From: Fidelibacterota bacterium
GTDB taxonomy: Bacteria > Fidelibacterota > Marinisomatia > Marinisomatales > UBA1611
Length of the DNA stretch: 57,759 nucleotides
Direction: 5' to 3'
Assembly (NCBI GenBank): GCA_018692355.1
Contig: JABHKE010000023.1
Coordinates: 1 to 57,759 of the forward strand
How positions within the stretch are numbered: the first letter of the stretch is position 1; each line of letters begins with the position of its first letter. A program made the translations under genes and the position numbers. A model generated the notes under the pieces. It saw only the letters and a list, made by a program, of their open reading frames with translations. It made no database searches and had not been told where the DNA came from. This document shows positions 4,176 through 30,725 of this stretch, in pieces.

Positions 4176-5404
4176 TGGAATTGACTCTTTTAACCATTGG
4201 GGTTTTTACCGGAGTGATCCTGGTTTTGGTTCTCATCATTAATTTTGCAGAAAGTAAACTACTGCCCCAAGGTGAAATGACAATTACTGTGAATGATGAG
4301 GAAGATAAAAAATTCAAGGTTGGTTCTGGCGGGACACTATTATCTGCATTAGCAAATGAAACCATTTATCTTCCATCTGCATGTGGTGGTGGCGGAACTT
4401 GCGCTATGTGCAAATGTCAGGTTTTAGATGGCGGTGGTGGGATACTCCCAACTGAAACAGGTCATATTAGTCGCAGCGAAGCAAAGGAAAATTGGCGTCT
4501 TGCCTGCCAGGTAAAGGTGAAGGAAGACATGAATATCCATGTTCCTGATGAAATTTTTAGTATTCGGAAATGGGAATGCACTGTCAAGTCTAATGAGAAC
4601 GTTGCCACATTTATCAAAGAATTGGTATTGGATTTACCTGAAGGGGAGAACCTTAATTTCCAGGCTGGTGGATATATCCAGATTGATATTCCAGAATACA
4701 GAAATTTGTTATTTAAGGATTTTGATGTAGAAGATGAATATCATCCGGATTGGGATAAATATAAAGTTTGGAATTTAGTTGCTAATAATGATGAGCCGAT
4801 ATTTCGTGCCTTTTCTATGGCGAATCATCCAGCCGAAGGGAACCGTATCATGTTAAATGTTCGGATCGCTACGCCGCCGCCGCCGCTATGGAATGATGTA
4901 CCTCCTGGTTTGGCATCTTCCTATATCTTTAATTTGAAACCAGGAGATAAAGTTACTATTTCCGGGCCATATGGTGAATTTTTTATCAAGGAAACGGATA
5001 GGGAAATGGTTTACATCGGTGGTGGTGCCGGCATGGCGCCCATGCGGTCCCATTTATTTCATTTATTCCAAACTCTGAAAACAGGACGGAAAGTTTCATT
5101 TTGGTATGGTGCGCGATCTGTTCGAGAAATGTTTTATGACGACCATTTTAAAGATCTTGCAGATCAGTTTTCAAATTTCAATTATCAAGTTGCTCTTTCG
5201 GATGCTATGGAAGAAGATAATTGGAAGGGTTCCACAGGATTCATCCACCAAGTACTCCATGATGAGTATTTGTCAAAACATGACGACCCTACAGAAGTTG
5301 AGTATTATATGTGTGGCCCCCCACCTATGATCAATGCTGTTGAAGGGATGCTGGATAGCCTAGGTGTTGAACCGGGAATGATTGCCTACGATAGTTTTGG
5401 ATAA
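4175..5404 (+). CDS. nqrF: Na+-NQR subunit F
   Basis: 409 aa with an N-terminal TM helix, the 2Fe-2S ferredoxin motif [12 protein letters not shown], the FAD motif RAFSMAN and the NADH-binding motif GGGAGMAP. Confidence 0.93.
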
Positions 5405-5417
5405 TTATTATTATAAG

Positions 5418-6455
5418 ATGAATATTACAAAAGCCCGACTATTGTTGGGCTTTTTAGTCTGTTTAATTGGCTGCAGTCAACAAAGAGACTTGATCCATTT
5501 TTCAGGTCTAACCATGGGAACCACTTACTCGATCAAGGCAATTCCATTAGAGAAAAACATGGATACTCAAATTTTAAAAAAAGGAATTGATTCCATTTTA
5601 TTTTCTCTGGATAAGCAAATGTCAACCTGGGACCCGAATAGTGAAATATCCCAATTCAACCTTACTCATTCGACTAAACCATACGCGATCTCGGAATCAT
5701 TTAGGACGGTGGTTAAAGCAGCTTTGGATGTATCGGAAAAGACGGATGGGTTTTTTGATATCACAGTGTTTGATCTTATGGGAATATGGGGTTTTGGCCC
5801 TGATCCTAATTCTGGGATACCGGACCAAAAACAAATTGAAACTGTCTTATCCTATACCGGGCATGAAAAAATTAGTGTTACTGAGAAAGCTATTATCAAA
5901 GAGTATCCTGAAACAAAACTGGATTTGAATGCTATCGCTAAAGGTTATGCCGTGGATGAGGTTTTCCATTTTCTCCAATCCAAGGGATTCACGGATTTTT
6001 TTGTAGAAATTGGTGGAGAAGTACAATGTTCTGGACGAAATCAGTTAAATAAATACTGGTCAATTGGCATTGAAAACCCTTCAGGCGGAAATAAGTCAAA
6101 TCAAACATTCGCTGCAATTGTTTATTCGGATGGCGGAGCGATTGCTACTTCGGGGAATTACCGTAATTTTGTTAGCATAGATGGTGAAATTCTTGGACAC
6201 ACAATCAATCCAAAAACCGGTATTCCCATCCTGACAAATGTTCTATCCGTAACTGTCCTGTCAAATTCTTGCATGGTAGCAGATGCGTGGGCAACTGCAT
6301 TAATGGTAATGGATTATGAAACGGGATTAAAAAAAGTGACAGAAAACTCGGACATAAAAGCCGTTTGGATTCTTGATAAGAAAGATGGATCAAGATGTGT
6401 TGCGACATCCGTTGGCGCGAAGATAGATGACTCTATTTACGAAATTATATCCTAA
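5418..6455 (+). CDS. apbE: FAD:protein FMN transferase (ApbE family lipoprotein)
   Basis: Lipoprotein signal with lipobox (LLGFLVCLIGC). ApbE-like sequence in the canonical position after nqrF. I prefer ATG 5418 to the track start 5382, which lies inside nqrF. Confidence 0.85.
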   Translation: MNITKARLLLGFLVCLIGCSQQRDLIHFSGLTMGTTYSIKAIPLEKNMDTQILKKGIDSILFSLDKQMSTWDPNSEISQFNLTHSTKPYAISESFRTVVKAALDVSEKTDGFFDITVFDLMGIWGFGPDPNSGIPDQKQIETVLSYTGHEKISVTEKAIIKEYPETKLDLNAIAKGYAVDEVFHFLQSKGFTDFFVEIGGEVQCSGRNQLNKYWSIGIENPSGGNKSNQTFAAIVYSDGGAIATSGNYRNFVSIDGEILGHTINPKTGIPILTNVLSVTVLSNSCMVADAWATALMVMDYETGLKKVTENSDIKAVWILDKKDGSRCVATSVGAKIDDSIYEIIS

Positions 6456-6630
6456 CTGAATCAGCTTCAGTATTTTCACATTTTTGAGGATCTCCACCAC
6501 AAATGGAACAATTGCCATTGGGATTCAATCCACCGCAGGAACCGGATATCGGTTTATTATTAAAAATGACACCAATAGCCATACCTACGATGGCAATAGC
6601 AAAAACTGTAATTCCAAGAAAAATTTCCAT
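6445..6630 (-). CDS. nqrM: (Na+)-NQR maturation factor NqrM-like small membrane protein (DUF539-like)
   Basis: About 61 aa from MEIFLG..., with one TM helix followed by a Cys-rich tail (SGSCGG...NCSICGG...C) typical of NqrM. Adjacent to apbE but on the opposite strand, overlapping the apbE 3' end by 11 nt. The only - strand gene I accept. Confidence 0.6.
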   Translation of the reverse strand: MEIFLGITVFAIAIVGMAIGVIFNNKPISGSCGGLNPNGNCSICGGDPQKCENTEADSVRI

Positions 6631-6749
6631 GCCTGAAATTACTGGAGAATAGTTCTCCAATACCGATATAATTATATTTGATCAGGGTTCCATTCTATAA
6701 GTGAAATATTGTAATTTTAAGACTTCGGTAAAACTGATATTGAACCATC

Positions 6750-8183
6750 ATGAAACATAAGATACTGTCTTTAATTTTGATTGCTGTCCCTGCGCTGATC
6801 TTGGCCAGTGGCGATCCACATGGTGAAGTCCCCCATTTAGATGGGAGTATAGAGAACTTAAATATTATTTGGGTGATCCCTTTTATTGGTATCTTGCTAT
6901 CCATAGCGGTATTCCCTTTAGTGGCTCCCTTATTTTGGCATCATCACTTCGGAAAAGTATCTCTTTTCTGGGCTGTTTCATTGATCGGTCCATTTTTATT
7001 GAAGGAAGGTTTGGAGATCACCTTATATGAACTACTTCATGTGGCATTTTTAGAATATATCCCGTTTATCATTTTACTATTAGCTTTATTTACAATTTCC
7101 GGCGGTGTACGTTTAACAGGATCCCTTGTCGGGACACCCAGCGTAAATACACTAATCATTCTGATTGGGACAATACTGGCAAGTTGGATGGGAACGACGG
7201 GAGCAGCTATGCTTTTAATTCGTCCGTTAATTCGTGCAAATGCTCACCGAAAGCATAAAGTTCATGTGATTGTATTCTTCATTTTCCTCGTAGCAAATAT
7301 TGGTGGTTCCTTGACACCACTTGGAGACCCTCCTCTATTTCTGGGATTTTTAAAAGGTGTGGATTTCTTTTGGACCACCACAGCTATGTTTAAGCCCATG
7401 GCGTTTATGATTATTTGCTTATTGATACTATTTTATATGTTTGATAAGTATTATTTCGGACATGAGCTTATCCCGGAATCCAATCGAAATGAGGAATCTC
7501 ATAAACTCGGTTTAGAAGGTTCTTTTAACTTGCTATTACTTTTAGGTGTGATCGGAGGTGTTTTATTAAGTGGATTTTGGGATGGGGGAGGTATCTATTA
7601 TGATGTTTTTCATATCCGCTTGGAAATACAAAACGTGGTTCGAGATGGATTGCTTCTTGGGTTGGCCTATGCCAGTTGGATATTGACATCACGTAAGATA
7701 CGCACCGCTAATGATTACACATGGTTTCCTATTATCGAAGTGGCCAAATTATTCGCGGGTATCTTTGTAACAATCATTCCAGCCATCGCCATCCTGAAAG
7801 CAGGAACTCATGGTGCATTAGCATCTGTTGTTTCTTCTGTTTCAAATGGAGACGGAAGTCCCATCGATTTCATGTATTTCTGGGCAACAGGAATTTTGTC
7901 TAGTTTTTTGGATAATGCACCAACTTACTTGGTCTTTTTTAATACGGCGGGTGGTAATGCTACCACACTCATGGAAGATCTGCCAAACACTCTTTTAGCC
8001 ATTTCCGCAGGAGCAGTTTTCATGGGGGCCAATACTTATATCGGAAATGCACCCAATTTTATGGTAAAATCTATTTCTGAAGCATCGGGGATCGAGATGC
8101 CCAGTTTCTTTGGGTATTTTTTTAAATGGGCATTACCAATCCTGTTCCCACTTTTTATTTTGGTATCATTTCTCTTTTTCTAA
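6750..8183 (+). CDS. Ion-transporter-superfamily permease (ArsB/NhaD-like, putative Na+/H+ antiporter)
   Basis: 477-aa, highly hydrophobic polytopic protein with general resemblance to ArsB/NhaD/citrate-transporter-type permeases. Substrate not inferable from sequence. Confidence 0.55.
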   Translation: MKHKILSLILIAVPALILASGDPHGEVPHLDGSIENLNIIWVIPFIGILLSIAVFPLVAPLFWHHHFGKVSLFWAVSLIGPFLLKEGLEITLYELLHVAFLEYIPFIILLLALFTISGGVRLTGSLVGTPSVNTLIILIGTILASWMGTTGAAMLLIRPLIRANAHRKHKVHVIVFFIFLVANIGGSLTPLGDPPLFLGFLKGVDFFWTTTAMFKPMAFMIICLLILFYMFDKYYFGHELIPESNRNEESHKLGLEGSFNLLLLLGVIGGVLLSGFWDGGGIYYDVFHIRLEIQNVVRDGLLLGLAYASWILTSRKIRTANDYTWFPIIEVAKLFAGIFVTIIPAIAILKAGTHGALASVVSSVSNGDGSPIDFMYFWATGILSSFLDNAPTYLVFFNTAGGNATTLMEDLPNTLLAISAGAVFMGANTYIGNAPNFMVKSISEASGIEMPSFFGYFFKWALPILFPLFILVSFLFF

Positions 8184-25665: not shown

Positions 25666-26520
25666 TTGAAATCAAAATTGTCACGCCACAATTTTTCTGA
25701 ATGGTGCCAGAATCCTGACCGGGAAACACTGGTTATGGGTATCATTAATGTAACGCCAGATTCTTTCAGCGATGGCGGGAAATATTTTACAAAAAATTCT
25801 GCTTTAAATCATGCCATGTCGCTGATTAAGGATGGAGCCGATATTCTGGATATTGGAGGTGAATCTTCTCGTCCAGGTGCTGCACCAATTTCTGTAAAAG
25901 ATGAATTGAATCGAATCATCCCCGTCATCAAATTGATTCGGAGGACAGATTCGGTCGTTTTAATTTCTATTGATACTACAAAATCAGTTGTAGCAAAACA
26001 GGCTGTGGAAGCTGGTGCCGATATTGTAAATGATATTAGCGGATTCTCTCTGGACAAAAATATGCCATCTGTGGTATCATCATTGGATGTGCCAGTGGTT
26101 TTAATGCACATGAAAGGAACACCCTTAACAATGCAAAAAAAGCCACACTATGATAACCTTGTGGGTGAAATCAGCTCTTTTTTTCTAAGTCAAATTAATG
26201 TTGCCAAATCTGCCGGAATCAAAACAGAAAAAATCATTTTGGATCCTGGAATTGGATTTGGAAAAACATTAGATCATAATTTTACAATTATTCAAAAATT
26301 GAATGAATTCTGTGAGTTGGGATATCCCGTGTTAATTGGCCCTAGCCGCAAAGCTTTTATAGGGTCCATGTTGGGTCTTCCATCTCATGATCGAATAGAA
26401 GGAACAGCAGCAGCTGTTTCTGCCGGTATTTTAAATGGTGCAAGAATTGTTCGGGTTCATGATGTGAAAGAAATGAAACGAGTGGTTACAATTACTGAAA
26501 AGATCAGGACTGCCGCATGA
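25666..26520 (+). CDS. folP: Dihydropteroate synthase
   Basis: Motif MGIINVTPDSFSDGG and a pterin-binding barrel. TTG start at 25666 is uncertain (alternative ATG 25735). Confidence 0.88.
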   Translation: MKSKLSRHNFSEWCQNPDRETLVMGIINVTPDSFSDGGKYFTKNSALNHAMSLIKDGADILDIGGESSRPGAAPISVKDELNRIIPVIKLIRRTDSVVLISIDTTKSVVAKQAVEAGADIVNDISGFSLDKNMPSVVSSLDVPVVLMHMKGTPLTMQKKPHYDNLVGEISSFFLSQINVAKSAGIKTEKIILDPGIGFGKTLDHNFTIIQKLNEFCELGYPVLIGPSRKAFIGSMLGLPSHDRIEGTAAAVSAGILNGARIVRVHDVKEMKRVVTITEKIRTAA

Positions 26521-27293
26521 CCATCTTCAAATTTGGATTCCTGACTTTGACTTTAATTGATGTGATTGATATCGTCCTGGTCACTTGGATCTTTATAAAA
26601 GTATACCAATATTTCAGAGAAACTCGGGCCGGACAAATGTTGATTGGATTGGTGATATTGCTCATCTCATCCTTCCTGTTCAATTCATTTGGATTGAGTG
26701 CCATGTCATGGTTAGTAAATCAATTCCAAACTGTTTGGGTAGTAGCATTTGTAATTTTATTCCAACCGGAAATCCGACGACTTTTAATCTATGTTGGACA
26801 AACACGATTTTTCCAACGCATTTTTATGATGGGAACTTCCCGTTCCTTGGAAGCGGTTGTGGAAGCTTCTTTAATTCTAGCAGAGAAAAAATGGGGTGCT
26901 TTGATTGTAATTCAGCGAGAGACGGGACTTCGCTCTTATAAAGAAGCAGGAACACCTTTAAAAGCGGAAGTTTCAACACCCTTACTCATGTCTATCTTTA
27001 ATCCAGGTTCGCCCATGCACGATGGGGCTGTCATATTACAAAATACATTATTGGAAGCTGCGGGCTGTATTTTGCCATTGACAGAAAGCTCGATGGTTTT
27101 ACCAGAGATGGGCACGCGACATCGTGCTGCATTAGGGATCACTGAAGAATCGGATGCAATTGTTGTAGTCGTTTCAGAAGAACGAGGGACAATCTCTACA
27201 GCCGAAAACGGTCGATTTACTCACTTGGATATGGATGAAATGAAATTACGTCGTTATTTAAATGAACGTTTATTTATTTCATCTGGTGATTAA
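26517..27293 (+). CDS. cdaA: Diadenylate cyclase CdaA
   Basis: Three N-terminal TM helices plus DAC-domain motifs (HDGAVIL, TRHRAALG, VVVSEERGTIS). Conserved folP-cdaA context. Confidence 0.87.
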   Translation: MTIFKFGFLTLTLIDVIDIVLVTWIFIKVYQYFRETRAGQMLIGLVILLISSFLFNSFGLSAMSWLVNQFQTVWVVAFVILFQPEIRRLLIYVGQTRFFQRIFMMGTSRSLEAVVEASLILAEKKWGALIVIQRETGLRSYKEAGTPLKAEVSTPLLMSIFNPGSPMHDGAVILQNTLLEAAGCILPLTESSMVLPEMGTRHRAALGITEESDAIVVVVSEERGTISTAENGRFTHLDMDEMKLRRYLNERLFISSGD

Positions 27294-27315
27294 AACATCA
27301 CTATCATCCTTGATC

Positions 27316-27368
27316 GTGGGTATGCGGTTTATAGCCGCATCGAGAGTTCGAATCTCTCCCTCTCCGCA
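27316..27368 (+). pseudogene. tRNA-Ser-derived 3' fragment: anticodon-stem 3' strand, long variable arm, T arm, acceptor 3' strand
   Basis: GTGGG, variable arm ATGCGG-tttatag-CCGCAT, T arm GAGAG-TTCGAAT-CTCTC, CCTCTCC plus discriminator G. No matching GGAGAGG 5' strand, D arm or anticodon loop upstream. Confidence 0.8.
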
Positions 27369-27385
27369 CTTTAATAGACGATAAA

Positions 27386-27407
27386 CCCTGCATAAGCGGG
27401 GTTTTTT
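27386..27407 (+). terminator. Rho-independent terminator-like hairpin after the tRNA fragment
   Basis: CCCTGC-ATAA-GCGGGG stem-loop followed by TTTTTT. Confidence 0.6.
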
Positions 27408-27602
27408 GCTTATAGCCTGAATTAGTCTGGATAGTGGAAAAAAGGGCTGAAATGGACTGAAACCACTGGTAATACACTGGTCATTTAGTTTCAACTAAAA
27501 AGTGGTAAGGTAGATGGCAAGCAAGGCAGGGTAGTGTCGGATAAAAAGGTTGACACGCATTCTTGTAGTATTTTTTTTAAAGGATGATGAGTAGATTAGG
27601 AG

Positions 27603-28301
27603 ATGCGTAGATATATTGTTTTACTTTTGATTAAAGGCATTGTGTGGGCACAGACTGATTTTGATAAATTAGTTTTGAAAGATGGTACTACATATTTGGG
27701 AGAATATTCAAAAATTGAAGGAGAGATAGTATATTTTAAACCTCAAAATGCGTTCACTTTCCAACCAATTTCTATTAAACAAATTCAAACACTAGAATTA
27801 AAAGATGGTCATTTTATCATTGTTCGTGGCTATGCAAAAAAAATACCTTTAGCTATTGAAGAATATCAAAAATTAAGTACTAAAGAAAAAGCAATTTATG
27901 ATGCAAAGTCCAAAAATTTGGGTAAGTTGGTTCTTTATGGGCCAACAAGTATTATTGTTTTTTTGGGTAGTATACAATTACATAAAGTTTTAATAGGGGG
28001 TGAATTTTGGGAAAGCCCTATATTTTTAGGAGGTTCTCCAGCGGCCAGTTTGACTATACCTTATTTTGTTTTAAACAGTAAAGAAAAATTTAATTTTCCT
28101 AAATCAATTTTGACTGGTTCTGAAAAAGGCATCTACAAGCAAGCTTATTCTAAAAAACTCCAGGAAAGGAAATTTAAATATGCTGCAGTTTCTACCATTG
28201 TTACTGGAGCAGTTTTAGTAGTTTCCTGGCCTGGTATTGATTGGTCTTCTTCCAGGAGTGGAGGGACAACTGGAAAAGGATTTACCGGACTTGGCCCATA
28301 A
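27603..28301 (+). CDS. Hypothetical secreted/membrane protein, module A (232 aa)
   Basis: Signal-peptide-like N-terminus (MRRYIVLLLIKGIVWA/QTD) and several hydrophobic segments in the C-terminal half. AGGAG sits immediately upstream. The N-terminal ~48 aa are near-identical to module B; the rest is unrelated. Confidence 0.6.
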   Translation: MRRYIVLLLIKGIVWAQTDFDKLVLKDGTTYLGEYSKIEGEIVYFKPQNAFTFQPISIKQIQTLELKDGHFIIVRGYAKKIPLAIEEYQKLSTKEKAIYDAKSKNLGKLVLYGPTSIIVFLGSIQLHKVLIGGEFWESPIFLGGSPAASLTIPYFVLNSKEKFNFPKSILTGSEKGIYKQAYSKKLQERKFKYAAVSTIVTGAVLVVSWPGIDWSSSRSGGTTGKGFTGLGP

Positions 28302-28314
28302 CAATAATTAGCCA

Positions 28315-28399
28315 CAGATTAGTGGGAAGATGGTTCAATTTCCGCTACAGATACACTGGTTGATTACTGGGTCCAGTTGGGAACCAGCCTGCTAAGTGG
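28315..28399 (+). repeat. 85-nt conserved module tail, copy 1 (ends in the anticodon-loop-like CTGCTAAGTGG)
   Basis: Matches 29383-29467 with about 9 substitutions and no indels. Contains ATACACTGGT and a GTGGGA...TTCC(G/A)C hairpin. Confidence 0.85.
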
Positions 28400-28448
28400 G
28401 TATGCGGTTTATAGCCGCATCGAGAGTTCGAATCTCTCCCTCTCCGCA
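28384..28448 (+). pseudogene. tRNA-Ser(GCU)-like partial gene: anticodon stem-loop through acceptor 3' end; no 5' acceptor strand or D arm
   Basis: CCAGC-CTGCTAA-GTGGG (anticodon GCT, one A-G mismatch in the stem), then the same variable arm, T arm and CCTCTCCG as at 27316. No GGAGAGG upstream. Confidence 0.7.
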
Positions 28449-28826
28449 TTTTAATAGACGATAAACCATGCATAAGCGGGGTTTTTTGCTTATAGCCTAA
28501 ATTAGTCTGATTAGTATAAAAAAGGGCTGAATTGGGCTTAAACCACTGGTAATACACTGGCCATTCAGTTTCAACTAAAAAGTGTTAGGGTAGAGGGCAA
28601 GCAAGGTGGGGTAGGGTCGGATAAAAAGGATGACACACATTCTTGTAGTATTTTTTTTAAAGGATGATGTGTAGATTAGGAGATGCATAGATATATAGTT
28701 TTACTTTTGATTACAGGCATTGTGTGGGCACAGACTGATTATGATAAATTAGTTTTGAAAGATGGTACTACATATTTGGGAGAATATATAAAAATTGAAG
28801 GTGAAATAGTATTTTTTAAACCTCTG
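28396..28826 (+). repeat. Direct repeat copy 2 (about 431 bp)
   Basis: See copy 1 at 27316-27746. Confidence 0.9.
28466..28487 (+). terminator. Terminator-like hairpin, copy 2 (weaker stem)
   Basis: CCATGC-ATAA-GCGGGG plus TTTTTT. One stem position is disrupted relative to copy 1. Confidence 0.45.
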
Positions 28827-29390
28827 GAGGGGCTTTATAAGAAAGAAGCATTCGAACCAGTTCCTGTTAAACTCATTAAGAAACTACAATTAAAAGATGG
28901 TCAAATTCTATTTGATGGTAGCAATGTGAAAACATTTGGGTCAGTATATAATGAACAAAAATTATCAGTAAAACAAGCCAAAATGCACTGGTATCAAATT
29001 TCTCCCTTTGAAATATTTTATGTGAGTATCTTAAAAAGACCAGCCAGATGGACAGTAAATAGGGGAAATGGTGGATTGATAGGAGATGAAGAATTTTTTT
29101 TAATAACCGAATCCACTCAAGAACAGATTCTCCTCAAAAATCAGCTTAAGCTTTCAAGGCAACAATTGTTTTTGAGTAGTATATCATTTTTAGTGGGTGG
29201 GTGGATGGCCCTTGCTTCACAACCAGGAAGTGTTTATGGACCTTTAGTTGTCATTATTAGTTCGGGGGTACTTGTGGATAGTAAAATCAATTACTTATAT
29301 CCAGTTATATCATTTGAATCTGCAAAAATTATTGCTGAACAATACAACAAGAACCTTTTATTGAAGAATAATCATCAAGCCCCAGATTAG
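28683..29390 (+). CDS. Hypothetical secreted/membrane protein, module B (235 aa)
   Basis: Same signal peptide and N-terminal domain as module A (MHRYIVLLLITGIVWA/QTD...). Divergent C-terminal part with hydrophobic segments. Stop TAG lies inside the conserved CAGATTAGTGGGA tail. Confidence 0.6.
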   Translation: MHRYIVLLLITGIVWAQTDYDKLVLKDGTTYLGEYIKIEGEIVFFKPLEGLYKKEAFEPVPVKLIKKLQLKDGQILFDGSNVKTFGSVYNEQKLSVKQAKMHWYQISPFEIFYVSILKRPARWTVNRGNGGLIGDEEFFLITESTQEQILLKNQLKLSRQQLFLSSISFLVGGWMALASQPGSVYGPLVVIISSGVLVDSKINYLYPVISFESAKIIAEQYNKNLLLKNNHQAPD

Positions 29391-29467
29391 TGGGATAATG
29401 GTTCAATTTCCACTACAGATACACTGGTTGATTATTAGTTATAGTCGGGAACCAGCCTGCTAAGTGG
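29383..29467 (+). repeat. 85-nt conserved module tail, copy 2, ending in CTGCTAAGTGG and then unique sequence
   Basis: Matches 28315-28399. After GTGG the similarity to the tRNA-derived block stops (taaggtggcctg...). Confidence 0.85.
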
Positions 29468-29614
29468 TAAGGTGGCCTGATTTTGTAATAAAGTTGTGAT
29501 TTTAATAACCATCACTCGTGTAATTCGGATTTAATTATTTACCCGTAGTTTATAACTTAACAATTTTCCCGATTTCCCCCTTAATTCGGGTTCATCTTCT
29601 CTGTAAATTTTCAG

Positions 29615-30725
29615 ATGGAATTATCTGATTTAAAGGAGCAATTTGCAGCAGCAGAATCCAAGGACTCCGAAATACGGAGGTATCTTTGATCTGGATTCCA
29701 GATCAAAAACATTAGTAGTGCTCCGCGAGCAATCTTCCAATCCAGATTTCTGGAATGATAATCAAGGTGCATCTAGCATCCTGAAAAAAATTTCCCGGAT
29801 CGAAAAAGAAATTGCGTTATGGTCAGACCTAACCAGGCGCCATGATGATATGGAGGTGTTATTCGAGTTTGCGGAAGAGGGCGAAACGGGTTTGGATGAA
29901 ATCCAAAATGAGCTGAATCTGTACCAGAAGATCATTGACGATGTTGAAATGAAACTTATTTTAGGCAAACCTGAAGATATTCAAAATGCCATTATGGCGA
30001 TTCACCCGGGTGCCGGTGGAACCGAGAGTCAAGATTGGGCACAAATGCTTTATCGCATGTACAAGCGATGGGCTGAGAAAGAAGATTTTAAAATTGAAAT
30101 TATAGATTTACAGCCAGGGGATGAAGCTGGTATAAAAGATGTAACATTTGAAATAAAAGGTGATTATGCTTTTGGCATGGCAAAAGCTGAAGCAGGTGTG
30201 CATCGCATGGTTCGAATTTCTCCCTTTGATTCTGCTAGCAGGCGCCACACATCATTTGCATCGGTATTTGTTTATCCCGCTGTAGAAGATGACATTGAGG
30301 TGGAAATTAATCCTACGGATCTTCGTATCGATACTTACCGTGCCAGCGGAGCAGGCGGTCAGCATATTAATAAAACAGATTCCGCCGTCCGCATTACGCA
30401 CCATCCAACAGGAATTGTTGCTCAATGCCAGAATGAGAGATCTCAGCATAAAAATAAGAGTCAAGCTATGAAGATTCTGAAAGCTAGGATTTATCAAGTA
30501 GAGCTGGAAAAAGAGAAAGAGAAAAATAAGGATCTGGAAGACCAAAAAATGGATATTGGGTGGGGAAGTCAGATCCGATCCTATGTTTTTCATCCTTATC
30601 AAATGGTAAAAGACCACCGAACCAAAGAAGAAAATGGAAATACCCAATTCGTTATGGATGGTGGTTTAACGCCATTTATTAAAGCATTTTTATTAAGTAC
30701 AATTGGTACTAAAAATAAGGCGTAA
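29615..30725 (+). CDS. prfB: Peptide chain release factor 2, with programmed +1 ribosomal frameshift
   Basis: ATG 29615 opens a 24-codon frame ending ...CGG AGG TAT CTT TGA T (29675-29690). A +1 shift at CTT-T (skip T 29687) joins the 29688-30725 frame. SPF (RISPFDS) and GGQ (SGAGGQHINK) motifs are present, and an SD-like GGAGG lies 3 nt upstream of the CTT. Confidence 0.93.

Follow-up and report, generated by a model that had tools for sequence, protein, structure and literature searches.

How does sequence belonging to a tRNA gene come to lie at three places in a spacer that holds no tRNA gene? This question is raised by positions 27316-29467 of a 57,759-nucleotide (nt) stretch of DNA from a Fidelibacterota bacterium (GenBank assembly GCA_018692355.1, contig JABHKE010000023.1, positions 1 to 57,759 of the forward strand; this whole stretch is referred to below as the window). 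On the basis of the letters alone, it had been proposed that tRNA-Ser(GCU)-derived sequence is split here over three sites in an att-like pattern (referred to below as the original prediction). All three sites were found where they had been placed, and only the middle copy (28384-28448) is contiguous. At the same time, the repeat proved to be not merely one of tRNA pieces, since it comprises two complete units of ~1.07 kb. As considered below, 27316-29467 is probably a tandem pair of non-autonomous single-gene integrative cassettes, inserted by a trans-acting integrase into a hairpin that served as pseudo-attB, and belonging to a tRNA-targeting family of SAR406. Among the uncultured bacteria of dark and oxygen-poor ocean waters, SAR406 (Marinimicrobia) is one of the most abundant groups. 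The way in which its streamlined genomes gain flexible genes is, to our knowledge, poorly known.

The insertion between cdaA and prfB

The gene order around the site is ftsH, folP, cdaA (26517-27293), insertion, prfB and lysS. Relatives of CdaA sharing 72-99% identity all come from metagenome-assembled genomes (MAGs) or single-cell genomes of Marinimicrobia (SAR406, Neomarinimicrobiota). The insertion, which spans 27316-29467 and amounts to 2,148 bp in the cdaA-prfB spacer, consists of two diverged head-to-tail units with the sequence GTGG at each boundary, namely at 27316, 28396 and 29464. Unit 1 (27316-28395; 1,080 bp) and unit 2 (28396-29467; 1,068 bp plus the common GTGG) both lie on the forward strand, as do all features of the window described below unless noted otherwise. 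The two units share 93% identity across their first ~430 nt (300 nt ungapped) and 89% identity across their last 90 nt. GC content is 31-36% in the cargo parts, as compared to 38-44% in the flanks.

The tRNA-derived copies are arranged around these boundaries. The left copy begins at GTGG (27316), with the non-tRNA sequence ...CCTTGATC directly upstream, while the right copy stops at GTGG (29467), with TAAGGTGGCC directly downstream. A 49-nt block extending from the variable arm to the acceptor end (GTATGCGG...CTCTCCGCA) is present in exactly two copies, at 27320-27368 and 28400-28448, with 0 mismatches. Likewise, a 20-nt block that holds the anticodon loop and has GTGG at its end (GGAACCAGCCTGCTAAGTGG) is present in exactly two copies, at 28380-28399 and 29448-29467. 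For each block, 0 copies were expected from shuffled sequence.

The junction sequence predicted for an empty site was CCTTGATCGTGGTAAGGTGGCC. In two close relatives, namely L002 and L003 (98% CdaA identity; related loci and contigs are referred to by L numbers), the site reads ...ATCATCCTTGAT(T/A)GTGGTAAGGTCGCC..., the sequence past the polymorphic T/A base being also given as GTGGTAAGGTCGCCTGATT, with one GTGG and with the two flanks abutting. Upon alignment to the empty site, the left flank ends at 6803 and the right flank starts at 6800, such that the overlap corresponds to 4 nt, GTGG. Sequence from the units, whether whole or partial, was absent from all 80 cdaA loci compared. Relative to the empty site, 27316-29467 is an insertion that lies between direct repeats of the crossover sequence. 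The order attL, element, attP-like site, element and attR put forward in the original prediction is borne out by the uninterrupted site with its one GTGG in L002 and L003.

Two head-to-tail units with a common 4-nt boundary could also be explained if a native stretch of chromosome had simply been duplicated in tandem through GTGG microhomology, in which case the tRNA-like junction in the middle would be a by-product. This is highly improbable, given that relatives lack even one unit at the site, that the units are diverged and encode proteins with unrelated C-termini, that the joined ends equal the genuine tRNA-Ser gene for ~100 nt, and that more than 100 unrelated contigs among the matches listed have these ends as well.

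GTGG moreover flanks each unit in the manner of a 4-bp target-site duplication, as would be expected of a transposon, or of an element resembling a miniature inverted-repeat transposable element, moved by a transposase. Yet the ends of the units are not terminal inverted repeats (GTATGCGG... versus ...GCCTGCTAA), an inverted-repeat search of the region having revealed none at these ends, and the joined ends restore a tRNA segment, which is a signature of conservative site-specific recombination. In addition, when the proteins of related loci were clustered, the enzyme found repeatedly near the family was a tyrosine integrase and not a transposase. The probability left to transposition is accordingly very small.

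Related MAG contigs often break at the repeats considered here (L001, L005 and L082), as would fit a false structure assembled from strain variants or a repeat-induced chimera. Yet contigs assembled from different ENA and JGI samples are 100% identical across the 2,401 nt that take in all three junctions; this comparison drew on 24 contigs, for which the index lists 80 blocks, and the contigs carrying cdaA, ORF1, ORF2 and prfB are 31-92 kb long. Moreover, a 4-nt overlap could not mislead an assembler. Because independent assemblies carry the identical insertion, junctions included, an assembly artefact can for all practical purposes be excluded. As the arrangement is 100% identical among these assemblies, the insertion can be considered as fixed in an abundant population. 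Metagenomes with this population include ENA ERZ23491365, ERZ27237646, ERZ4201000 and ERZ4200968, and JGI 3300025770.

The tRNA-Ser(GCU) segment and the attP-like site

The genuine tRNA-Ser(GCU) gene was located by a pattern scan of species-representative genomes. The gene, called by ARAGORN, is found at positions 52-142 on the minus strand of contig L082, which belongs to the same MAG as does the empty site L002. From GCCTGCTAAG onward, it is 100% identical to window positions 27318-27411 (94 nt); identity to positions 28384-28491 is 96% (108 nt). The identity extends beyond the tRNA 3' end through the downstream terminator. A terminator scan placed copies of this intrinsic terminator at 27383-27410 in unit 1, where the sequence is identical to that downstream of the genuine tRNA-Ser in L082 and L113, and at 28463-28490 in unit 2, where one stem substitution (CCATGC for CCCTGC) is seen. 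Within the tRNA, the element copy and the genuine gene differ at positions 29 and 40 (CCAGC/GTGGG versus CCCGC/GCGGG). Such near-identity between an element-borne att site and the 3' part of the target tRNA gene shows that the tRNA part of the element derives from the genuine tRNA-Ser(GCU) gene.

Despite this origin, the window does not encode a tRNA. The left fragment (27316-27368) comprises the end of the anticodon stem, the variable arm, the T arm, the 3' acceptor strand and the discriminator, while the middle site (28384-28448) holds a contiguous segment that starts with the anticodon arm and continues to the 3' end. In this copy, the sequence that precedes the anticodon stem is what is termed the P arm below, with neither a D arm nor an acceptor strand. 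The full cloverleaf, 5' acceptor strand and D arm of a functional tRNA gene are thus lacking. ARAGORN identified 0 tRNA genes in the whole window, and a search of the window against Rfam yielded no match at gathering thresholds and no tRNA match even at E <= 10, with a very weak sub-threshold match of the tRNA-like blocks to the tmRNA T arm being noted. A permuted or two-piece tRNA or tmRNA was considered and dropped, because the 5' acceptor strand GGAGAGG is nowhere nearby. Sub-threshold matches on the minus strand to RF04351 (Plastid-psbl-rps4 3'UTR RNA; 36-46 bits, gathering threshold 68) were also seen at 27310-27366 and 28392-28446; the RF04351 model apparently resembles antisense tRNA-Ser, and these matches are not evidence for a plastid-like RNA here. 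In practical terms, stray partial tRNAs contributed by such elements should not be annotated as genes.

These results agree with several further points of the original prediction. No full tRNA was found by scanning, as had been expected, and the flanks, being cdaA and prfB, are not those of a tRNA gene. The proposed comparison of the copies with the genuine tRNA-Ser(GCU), made here with the gene of a close relative, gave the values of 100 and 96% cited above. The view that the contiguous version is ancestral is in line with its match to that gene and with the recurrence elsewhere of the junction between the P arm and the tRNA-Ser 3' part.

Fragments of a tRNA 3' end are typical of island borders, and tRNA-Ser arrays exist in relatives (L113 and L133). 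As such, the site could be a decayed genuine tRNA-Ser(GCU) locus, at which islands integrated into the resident tRNA gene and the 5' half was later deleted. This is very unlikely, as tRNA sequence is absent from the L002 and L003 empty sites, where only a hairpin and one GTGG are present, and as the genuine tRNA-Ser in L082 lies on a different contig, with different neighbours. Furthermore, both junctions break at the same 4 nt, which fits reciprocal recombination rather than deletion.

Where the cassette ends join, what reads as a complete lambda-style attP of ~235 bp is formed. This comprises, in order, the P arm CTACAGATACACTGGT, a spacer of ~26 nt, GCCTGC, the 7 nt TAAGTGG, the tRNA-Ser(GCU) 3' part with its terminator, and tandem P' sites of sequence CACTGGTAATACACTGG. 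Motif scans of the window placed the P arms at 28332-28360 in unit 1 (GGTTCAATTTCCGCTACAGATACACTGGT) and at 29400-29428 in unit 2 (GGTTCAATTTCCACTACAGATACACTGGT). The P' arm-type sites, corresponding to the tandem direct repeat CACTGGTAATACACTGG, were detected at 27464-27480 in unit 1 and at 28544-28560 in unit 2 (2 in the window versus 0.04 expected). Within the window, the P and P' motifs are confined to 27316-29467. Putative arm-type repeats are accordingly present on both sides of the core, namely a single ATACACTGGT in the P arm, with CACTGGTAATACACTGG making up the P' arm. The core of the intact junction, i.e., GCCTGC and the putative overlap TAAGTGG, lies at 28387-28399, with GTGG at 28396-28399, and the join at the middle site reads ...GCCTGCTAAGTGGGTATGCGG.

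The same layout is constant in marine contigs, these presenting GGTTCAATTTCC(A/G)CTACAGATACACTGGT, ~26 nt, GCCTGC, 7 nt, a tRNA 3' part with terminator, ~55-95 nt, and then CACTGGTAATACACTGG followed by TCATTT. In most related loci, the CACTGGTAATACACTGG repeat is seen at a matching distance past the tRNA-Ser and tRNA-Pro 3' parts. Because all motifs of this constant architecture are present there, 28332-28560 can be read as a complete P-O-P' site, with the left junction corresponding to B-O-P' and the right junction to P-O-B'. That the element itself carries the tRNA-like block, as originally predicted, is hence true, but the term 'mimic' then used undersells a block that lies inside an attP with arm sites.

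To define the family more widely, the conserved sequence upstream of the tRNA block was used in a P-arm scan of metagenomes, and the hits were oriented and compared. The P-arm motif was detected in more than 119 marine metagenome contigs, this number and the counts that follow being those among the matches listed. The P arm is followed by the 3' part of tRNA-Pro(UGG) in 42 cases and by that of tRNA-Ser(GCU) in 27, 25 of these on other contigs, while in two hybrids, a Ser-type P arm is joined to the Pro 3' part within CAGCCTGCT. In 13 copies, termed type C, no tRNA sequence is present and GCCTGC, 7 nt and GCAAGTG are instead followed by the leader. Direct fusion of the P arm to the distal P' repeat, as if by deletion between the ATACACTGGT repeats, was seen 15 times, and a P arm and core followed by non-tRNA sequence four times, including the right junction of the window. 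A further 17 contigs are too short to classify, and five were assigned to other arrangements. In L193, L144 and L086, which present a P arm and core, the non-tRNA sequence starts from the same position, past TAAGTG(G/A).

In the type C copies (L086 1497-1560, L147 1050-1110, L133 121-200, L140, L177, L197 and others), the arms are highly conserved, while the central 4-5 spacer nucleotides differ in nearly every copy (e.g., TTATTAA, TTGAAGA, TTAGACA, TTTATAA and TTAACGA). The variable bases sit where the tRNA-Pro arm has the anticodon and position 37. A hypervariable overlap is odd for a site used by a tyrosine recombinase.

The position of the crossover can be narrowed down from several directions. 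The junctions in the window place the apparent exchange within or at the edge of GTGG, and in the Ser/Pro hybrids (L162 and L192), the parts are joined within or at the edge of CAGCCTGCT. Between the limits set by GTGG and CAGCCTGCT lies a T/C polymorphism, such that element copies read AAGT and the genuine tRNA reads AAGC, with both variants being found downstream of P arms. Finally, both type C sites and tRNA-Pro present 7 nt between GCCTGC and GCA(A/G)G. From these observations, we infer a 7-nt overlap, TAAGTGG, directly 3' of GCCTGC. The original prediction had put the crossover in or beside the anticodon stem; the junctions pin the crossover to GTGG, which corresponds to tRNA positions 39-42 in the 3' strand of that stem.

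The corresponding 7 nt of tRNA-Pro, TTTGGGA between CCTGC and GCAGG, coincide exactly with the anticodon loop. The register in tRNA-Ser differs from this by 4 nt, given that its GCCTGC covers the stem end, C32, U33 and anticodon bases 1 and 2. It would appear that the enzyme recognizes the sequence GCCTGC and not the shape of the tRNA, which would explain how one arm architecture serves two tRNAs.

The chromosomal target is not a tRNA or tmRNA gene but rather the cdaA-prfB spacer, which contains no tRNA. The left half of the presumed pseudo-attB (27299-27319), found right after the cdaA stop codon (27293), is a stem-loop with an 8-position stem that includes one internal mismatch, its 3' strand ending in the GTG of GTGG. 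The right half, TAAGGTGGCCTGATTTTGTAATA (29468-29490), is joined to the left half in L002 and L003. Folding predicts this hairpin for the window as well as for the empty sites of L002 and L003, and the insertion point corresponds to its 3' strand. At the attL-like left junction, GTGG (27316-27319) is common to chromosome and element, while the attR-like right junction contains GCCTGC plus TAAGTGG (29455-29467), with GTGG at 29464-29467.

The sharing of only 4 nt between target and element, the weak similarity of target and attP beyond GTGG and the lack of an integrase in the window would each be expected if an excised cassette circle had entered by illegitimate insertion, i.e., by microhomology or end-joining, with no integrase being involved at the chromosomal site. 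By contrast, the element is broken exactly in the anticodon-arm region beside GCCTGC, where the L162 and L192 hybrids and the AAGT/AAGC polymorphism also place recombination; non-tRNA sequence starts at the same position in L193, L144 and L086; and the target is a hairpin ending in GTGG, like an anticodon arm. Illegitimate insertion is on balance unlikely, although it stays a live rival because the target resembles attP weakly outside GTGG.

Two further observations concern the target. In L004 (CdaA 97% identical; 6780-6900), the hairpin past cdaA is present in two copies, CCACGACCATCATGGTCGTGG and CCATGACCATCCTTGGTCGTGG, separated by ~80 nt of unrelated sequence and with more unrelated sequence after the second; the same spot may have been hit by something else in that genome. 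A junction upstream of uvrC in L086 was considered as a second chromosomal pseudo-site. Because its flank, which begins GCAAG...CCTGATT, resembles degenerate type C/P' sequence, this junction was not counted as an independent pseudo-attB.

Integrases and cassettes of the family

Each unit in the window contains one ORF, which does not encode an integrase, such that no tyrosine integrase of the units' own lies beside the attP-like site. When the ORFs of the fetched contigs were clustered, a recurrent recombinase was revealed, namely a 293-aa tyrosine integrase (PF00589, E = 1.4e-18). The L193 version contains the motifs ARSGE, HDLRRTF and LLGH and a C-terminal Y, and the closest solved structures are 5dor/5c6k 'Integrase' and HP1 integrase (E = 2e-7 to 3e-4). 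The integrase faces inward beside related att sites in L193, L113, L118, L147 and L092. It always points away from the att site, with its start codon lying 25-70 nt from the arm repeats. In L147, L092 and L133, the integrase starts ~30 nt from GCTACAGATACACTGGT, the same motif as in the P arm of the window. The N-terminal region of this CACTGGT-arm integrase was found in 92 metagenome protein clusters, all on short contigs; none of the 92 includes a full-length version, the sequences being cut by contig ends or stops. The complete integrases that could be read are of the sister type only, with GCTACATAT-type arm repeats (L193 and L209). These comparisons indicate that the putative arm-site architecture is conserved and that related att sites adjoin integrases elsewhere.

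Members of the family found elsewhere sit at tRNA-Ser, -Pro, -Ala and -Arg genes. In L209, from a single-cell genome, an intact tRNA-Ala(GGC) gene, a gene encoding a 1,037-aa repeat protein, an inward-facing integrase gene, arm repeats and a tRNA-Ala 3' fragment starting at the anticodon stem were observed, with similar layouts in L208, L213 and L210 (tRNA-Arg). Inspection by eye of translations from two such cargo regions revealed, in L193 (1652-6267), proteins of 658 aa (P-loop NTPase motif) and 331 aa (cysteine-rich) as well as a small MazG-like protein, and in L209 (flipped; 4440-7550), the 1,037-aa repeat-rich protein, which ends ...KKMVLLK.

Cassettes akin to the window units were also identified. 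Unit 2 and the last cassette of L133 share 93% identity across 1,006 nt. L133 presents, in order, an integrase remnant, a type C site, a cargo gene encoding 704 aa, and then the cassette, which ends in a P arm and the tRNA-Ser 3' part with the native AAGC. In L199, a 1,028-nt cassette with unrelated cargo lies between two P-arm/tRNA-Ser junctions. In L113, an integrase gene is followed by a tRNA-Ser 3' part that keeps its native downstream sequence, by three ORFs, two of which belong to the window family, and by a further P-arm/tRNA-Ser junction. In L147 and L133, an integrase gene or its remnant is followed in tandem by an integrase-less cassette. The cassettes thus appear to behave as modules.

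The cargo of the window units comprises ORF1 (27603-28301; 232 aa) and ORF2 (28683-29390; 235 aa), whose products, as read from sequence, each present a hydrophobic signal-peptide-like N-terminus and hydrophobic C-terminal segments. The first ~100 residues of the two proteins are 57% identical, while the remainder is unrelated. Neither protein found a match in Pfam, NCBIfam or PHROGs. The ORF1 family includes 1,391 protein clusters at 90% identity, nearly all on short marine contigs. Each ORF is preceded by a conserved leader; that of unit 1 (27411-27602), which holds the P' sites and ends in GGATGATGAGTAGATTAGGAG right before the start codon, is 93% identical to that of unit 2. Such leaders are conserved in L081, L096, L150 and others. 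L081 (JAAZXG010000044.1) is a 2.7-kb contig binned in a 'Methanobacteriota archaeon' MAG that contains a P-arm/tRNA-Ser junction and leader at ~88% identity to the window, and is probably mis-binned.

Within the leaders, a G-rich stretch at 27500-27560 and 28580-28640 (e.g., GGTAAGGTAGATGGCAAGCAAGGCAGGGTAGTGTCGGATAAAAAGG) is kept across cassettes with unrelated cargo, and could hold accessory-factor sites, a promoter or a small RNA. Between small cargo genes of SAR406 islands, an intergenic module recurs, in which a terminator hairpin is followed by a conserved box, with AAGCCCCACATTAGTGGGGTTTTTTGTTTGTGGGATGATnnGTAGATTTGG directly before the start codon (L083 2870-2900 and 3530-3570, L086 100-150 and 1000-1050, L113 830-880, and L208). 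The window cassettes (27582-27602 and 28662-28682) keep the second half of this module, GGATGATGAGTAGATTAGGAG-ATG. As for the neighbouring prfB (29615-29700), this gene presents an ordinary, classical programmed +1 frameshift, with a 24-codon leader, MELSDLKEQFAAAESKDSEIRRYL, that ends CTT TGA and has GGAGG before it; the main frame runs on from 29643.

Contigs very often end at or within att repeats, as seen in L001, L005, L082, L220, L221 and many of L088-L206. The end of L005 lies 5 nt short of GTGG at the cdaA site, and that of L082 lies 50 nt past the genuine tRNA-Ser. Such repeats apparently interrupt the assembly of SAR406 MAGs in a systematic manner. Because neither the att motifs nor close relatives of the integrase were found in IMG/VR, a phage or satellite origin finds no support.

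As such, the following course of events can be proposed. In the normal cycle, a tyrosine integrase with an N-terminal arm-binding region would recombine attP with the anticodon arm of tRNA-Ser(GCU), sister attPs being directed to tRNA-Pro(UGG). The tRNA 3' part borne by the element would regenerate the tRNA gene, and repeated integrations would build tandem arrays. At the locus considered here, a CACTGGT-arm-type integrase provided in trans would have recombined attP with the hairpin pseudo-attB just past cdaA, the outcome being the B-O-P' junction at 27316, the intact internal P-O-P' site at 28332-28560 and the P-O-B' junction at 29467. The pair might have entered as a two-cassette circle that was excised from a tRNA-Ser array and inserted once, or as two cassettes inserted sequentially. 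Mobilization in trans, and entry in a single or a double event, are what we infer for this pair.

Several points weigh against such a course of events. No integrase was detected in the 57.7-kb window, this being the scope of the tblastn search. Beyond GTGG, similarity between the pseudo-attB and attP is modest, with ~7/15 matches on the left as counted by eye, a statistically uncompelling value. The placement of the overlap draws on junctions mapped in a handful of loci, and mosaic copies (L127 and L147) show that homologous exchange between repeated tRNA segments takes place as well. The integrase is truncated or interrupted by stops in several related loci (L147 605-1024, L223 740-1600 and L222 1934-2653), consistent with decaying elements in islands. 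A terminal-overlap test of every fetched contig revealed no circular cassette, nor did the contigs include an excised (empty) allele from the population that carries the insertion. The pair may be immobile now, because the insertion is invariant across samples.

Significance and comparison with known systems

Islands that target tRNA genes, tandem accretion and integrase-less derivatives are all already established, and no new principle is involved here. The contribution of the locus is a widespread family of SAR406 elements, undescribed in the literature searched, with unusually small, standardized integrase-less cassettes, an arm architecture common to two tRNA targets and off-target insertion; a full-text literature search combining Marinimicrobia with integrase, tRNA and genomic island returned no account of this family. 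As an example, the locus is clean and resolved to the base, given that the empty site, the two outer junctions and the intact attP between the units can all be read. It provides a testable anatomy of the att site, including arm sites, core and 7-nt overlap, as well as evidence for off-target insertion at a hairpin, and the repeats explain many of the contig breaks in SAR406 MAGs. The family appears to generate much of the genome flexibility of SAR406. More speculatively, and with considerable doubt, SAR406 might maintain an integron-like cassette economy based on lambda-type recombination, in which a large pool of ~1-kb one-gene integrase-less cassettes with a full tRNA-derived attP would be shuttled in trans by a few integrase-bearing elements among tRNA-Pro, tRNA-Ser and hairpin pseudo-sites, with the 7-nt spacer, hypervariable in type C, serving as an address code for site pairing.

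Elements that integrate into tRNA genes keep the 3' part of the target tRNA in attP and so regenerate the gene (Islander paper, PMC4383910). In this respect, the block in the window is an ordinary attP copy of the target tRNA 3' part. As in tRNA-targeting islands and prophages of the Islander type, the attP of the present family holds such a 3' part, the far border is recognizable from a tRNA fragment that has been displaced, the integrase gene adjoins attP and arm-type repeats flank the core on both sides, with L209 offering a textbook case at tRNA-Ala. Unlike these islands, the window units have no integrase, are only ~1.07 kb long, with attP accounting for about a fifth, and occupy a non-tRNA hairpin site, while the family employs one arm architecture for both Ser-GCU and Pro-UGG via the common GCCTGC(T), the anticodon-arm register differing between the two.

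Cis-mobilizable elements (CIMEs) and tandem accretion are known from Streptococcus islands of the ICESt1 type, with CIMEs usually being decayed integrative and conjugative elements or integrative and mobilizable elements, several kb long and found at the primary target. CIMEs have lost their integration genes yet kept their att sites, occur in tandem with elements that may or may not bear an integrase, and rely on a related element to provide this enzyme (PMC5704250). The window units similarly contain no integration or transfer genes and present att sites at both ends. The occurrence of the same cassette type in different contexts and in tandem with integrase-bearing elements offers circumstantial evidence for mobilization by a related integrase, and the tandems of L147 and L133, with an integrase or its remnant followed by an integrase-less cassette, are CIME-like. 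Unlike CIMEs, the window units look like a standard module of leader, one ORF and att, with many different cargos across the family; moreover, no conjugation genes are involved and the window pair lies at a secondary site.

A further parallel is offered by tycheposons, described in Prochlorococcus and other marine bacteria, with the preprint naming Alpha-, Gamma- and Deltaproteobacteria as other hosts and making no mention of Marinimicrobia (bioRxiv 10.1101/2020.12.28.424599). Traits given there for tycheposons that are also seen in the present family include streamlined ocean bacteria as hosts, integration at tRNA genes, an inward-facing tyrosine recombinase at one end, cargo in hypervariable islands, partial tRNAs that separate tandem integrations, and integrase fragments and stray partial tRNAs as remnants. 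The tycheposon layout, i.e., a tRNA gene, an inward-facing recombinase and partial tRNA repeats, is present in L209, L208 and L193, while the window units have neither recombinase nor tRNA target. As to the optional replication module of tycheposons, the ORF translations from L209 and L193, which were judged by eye and without a family search, revealed no primase- or helicase-like gene. The tycheposon text searched contains no account of one-gene units that lack an integrase and carry a full attP (bioRxiv 10.1101/2020.12.28.424599).

Finally, the window units invite comparison with integron cassettes. In integrons, the defining attC site is paired with an IntI-type integrase. Here, the site is tRNA-derived and has arm sites, and the family integrase scores 27 bits against an integron-integrase model with a cutoff of 265. 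Unlike the folded single-stranded attC, the site of this family reads as a double-stranded lambda-type attP containing arm sites and a tRNA segment; likewise, the cassettes carry their own leader and there is no attI/Pc platform. Otherwise, the units resemble integron cassettes in being ~1 kb long, in holding a single ORF, no recombinase and a recombination site of their own, in their head-to-tail arrangement, in drawing on a very large cargo pool (1,391 clusters for the ORF1 family) and, presumably, in being moved by a tyrosine recombinase encoded elsewhere.

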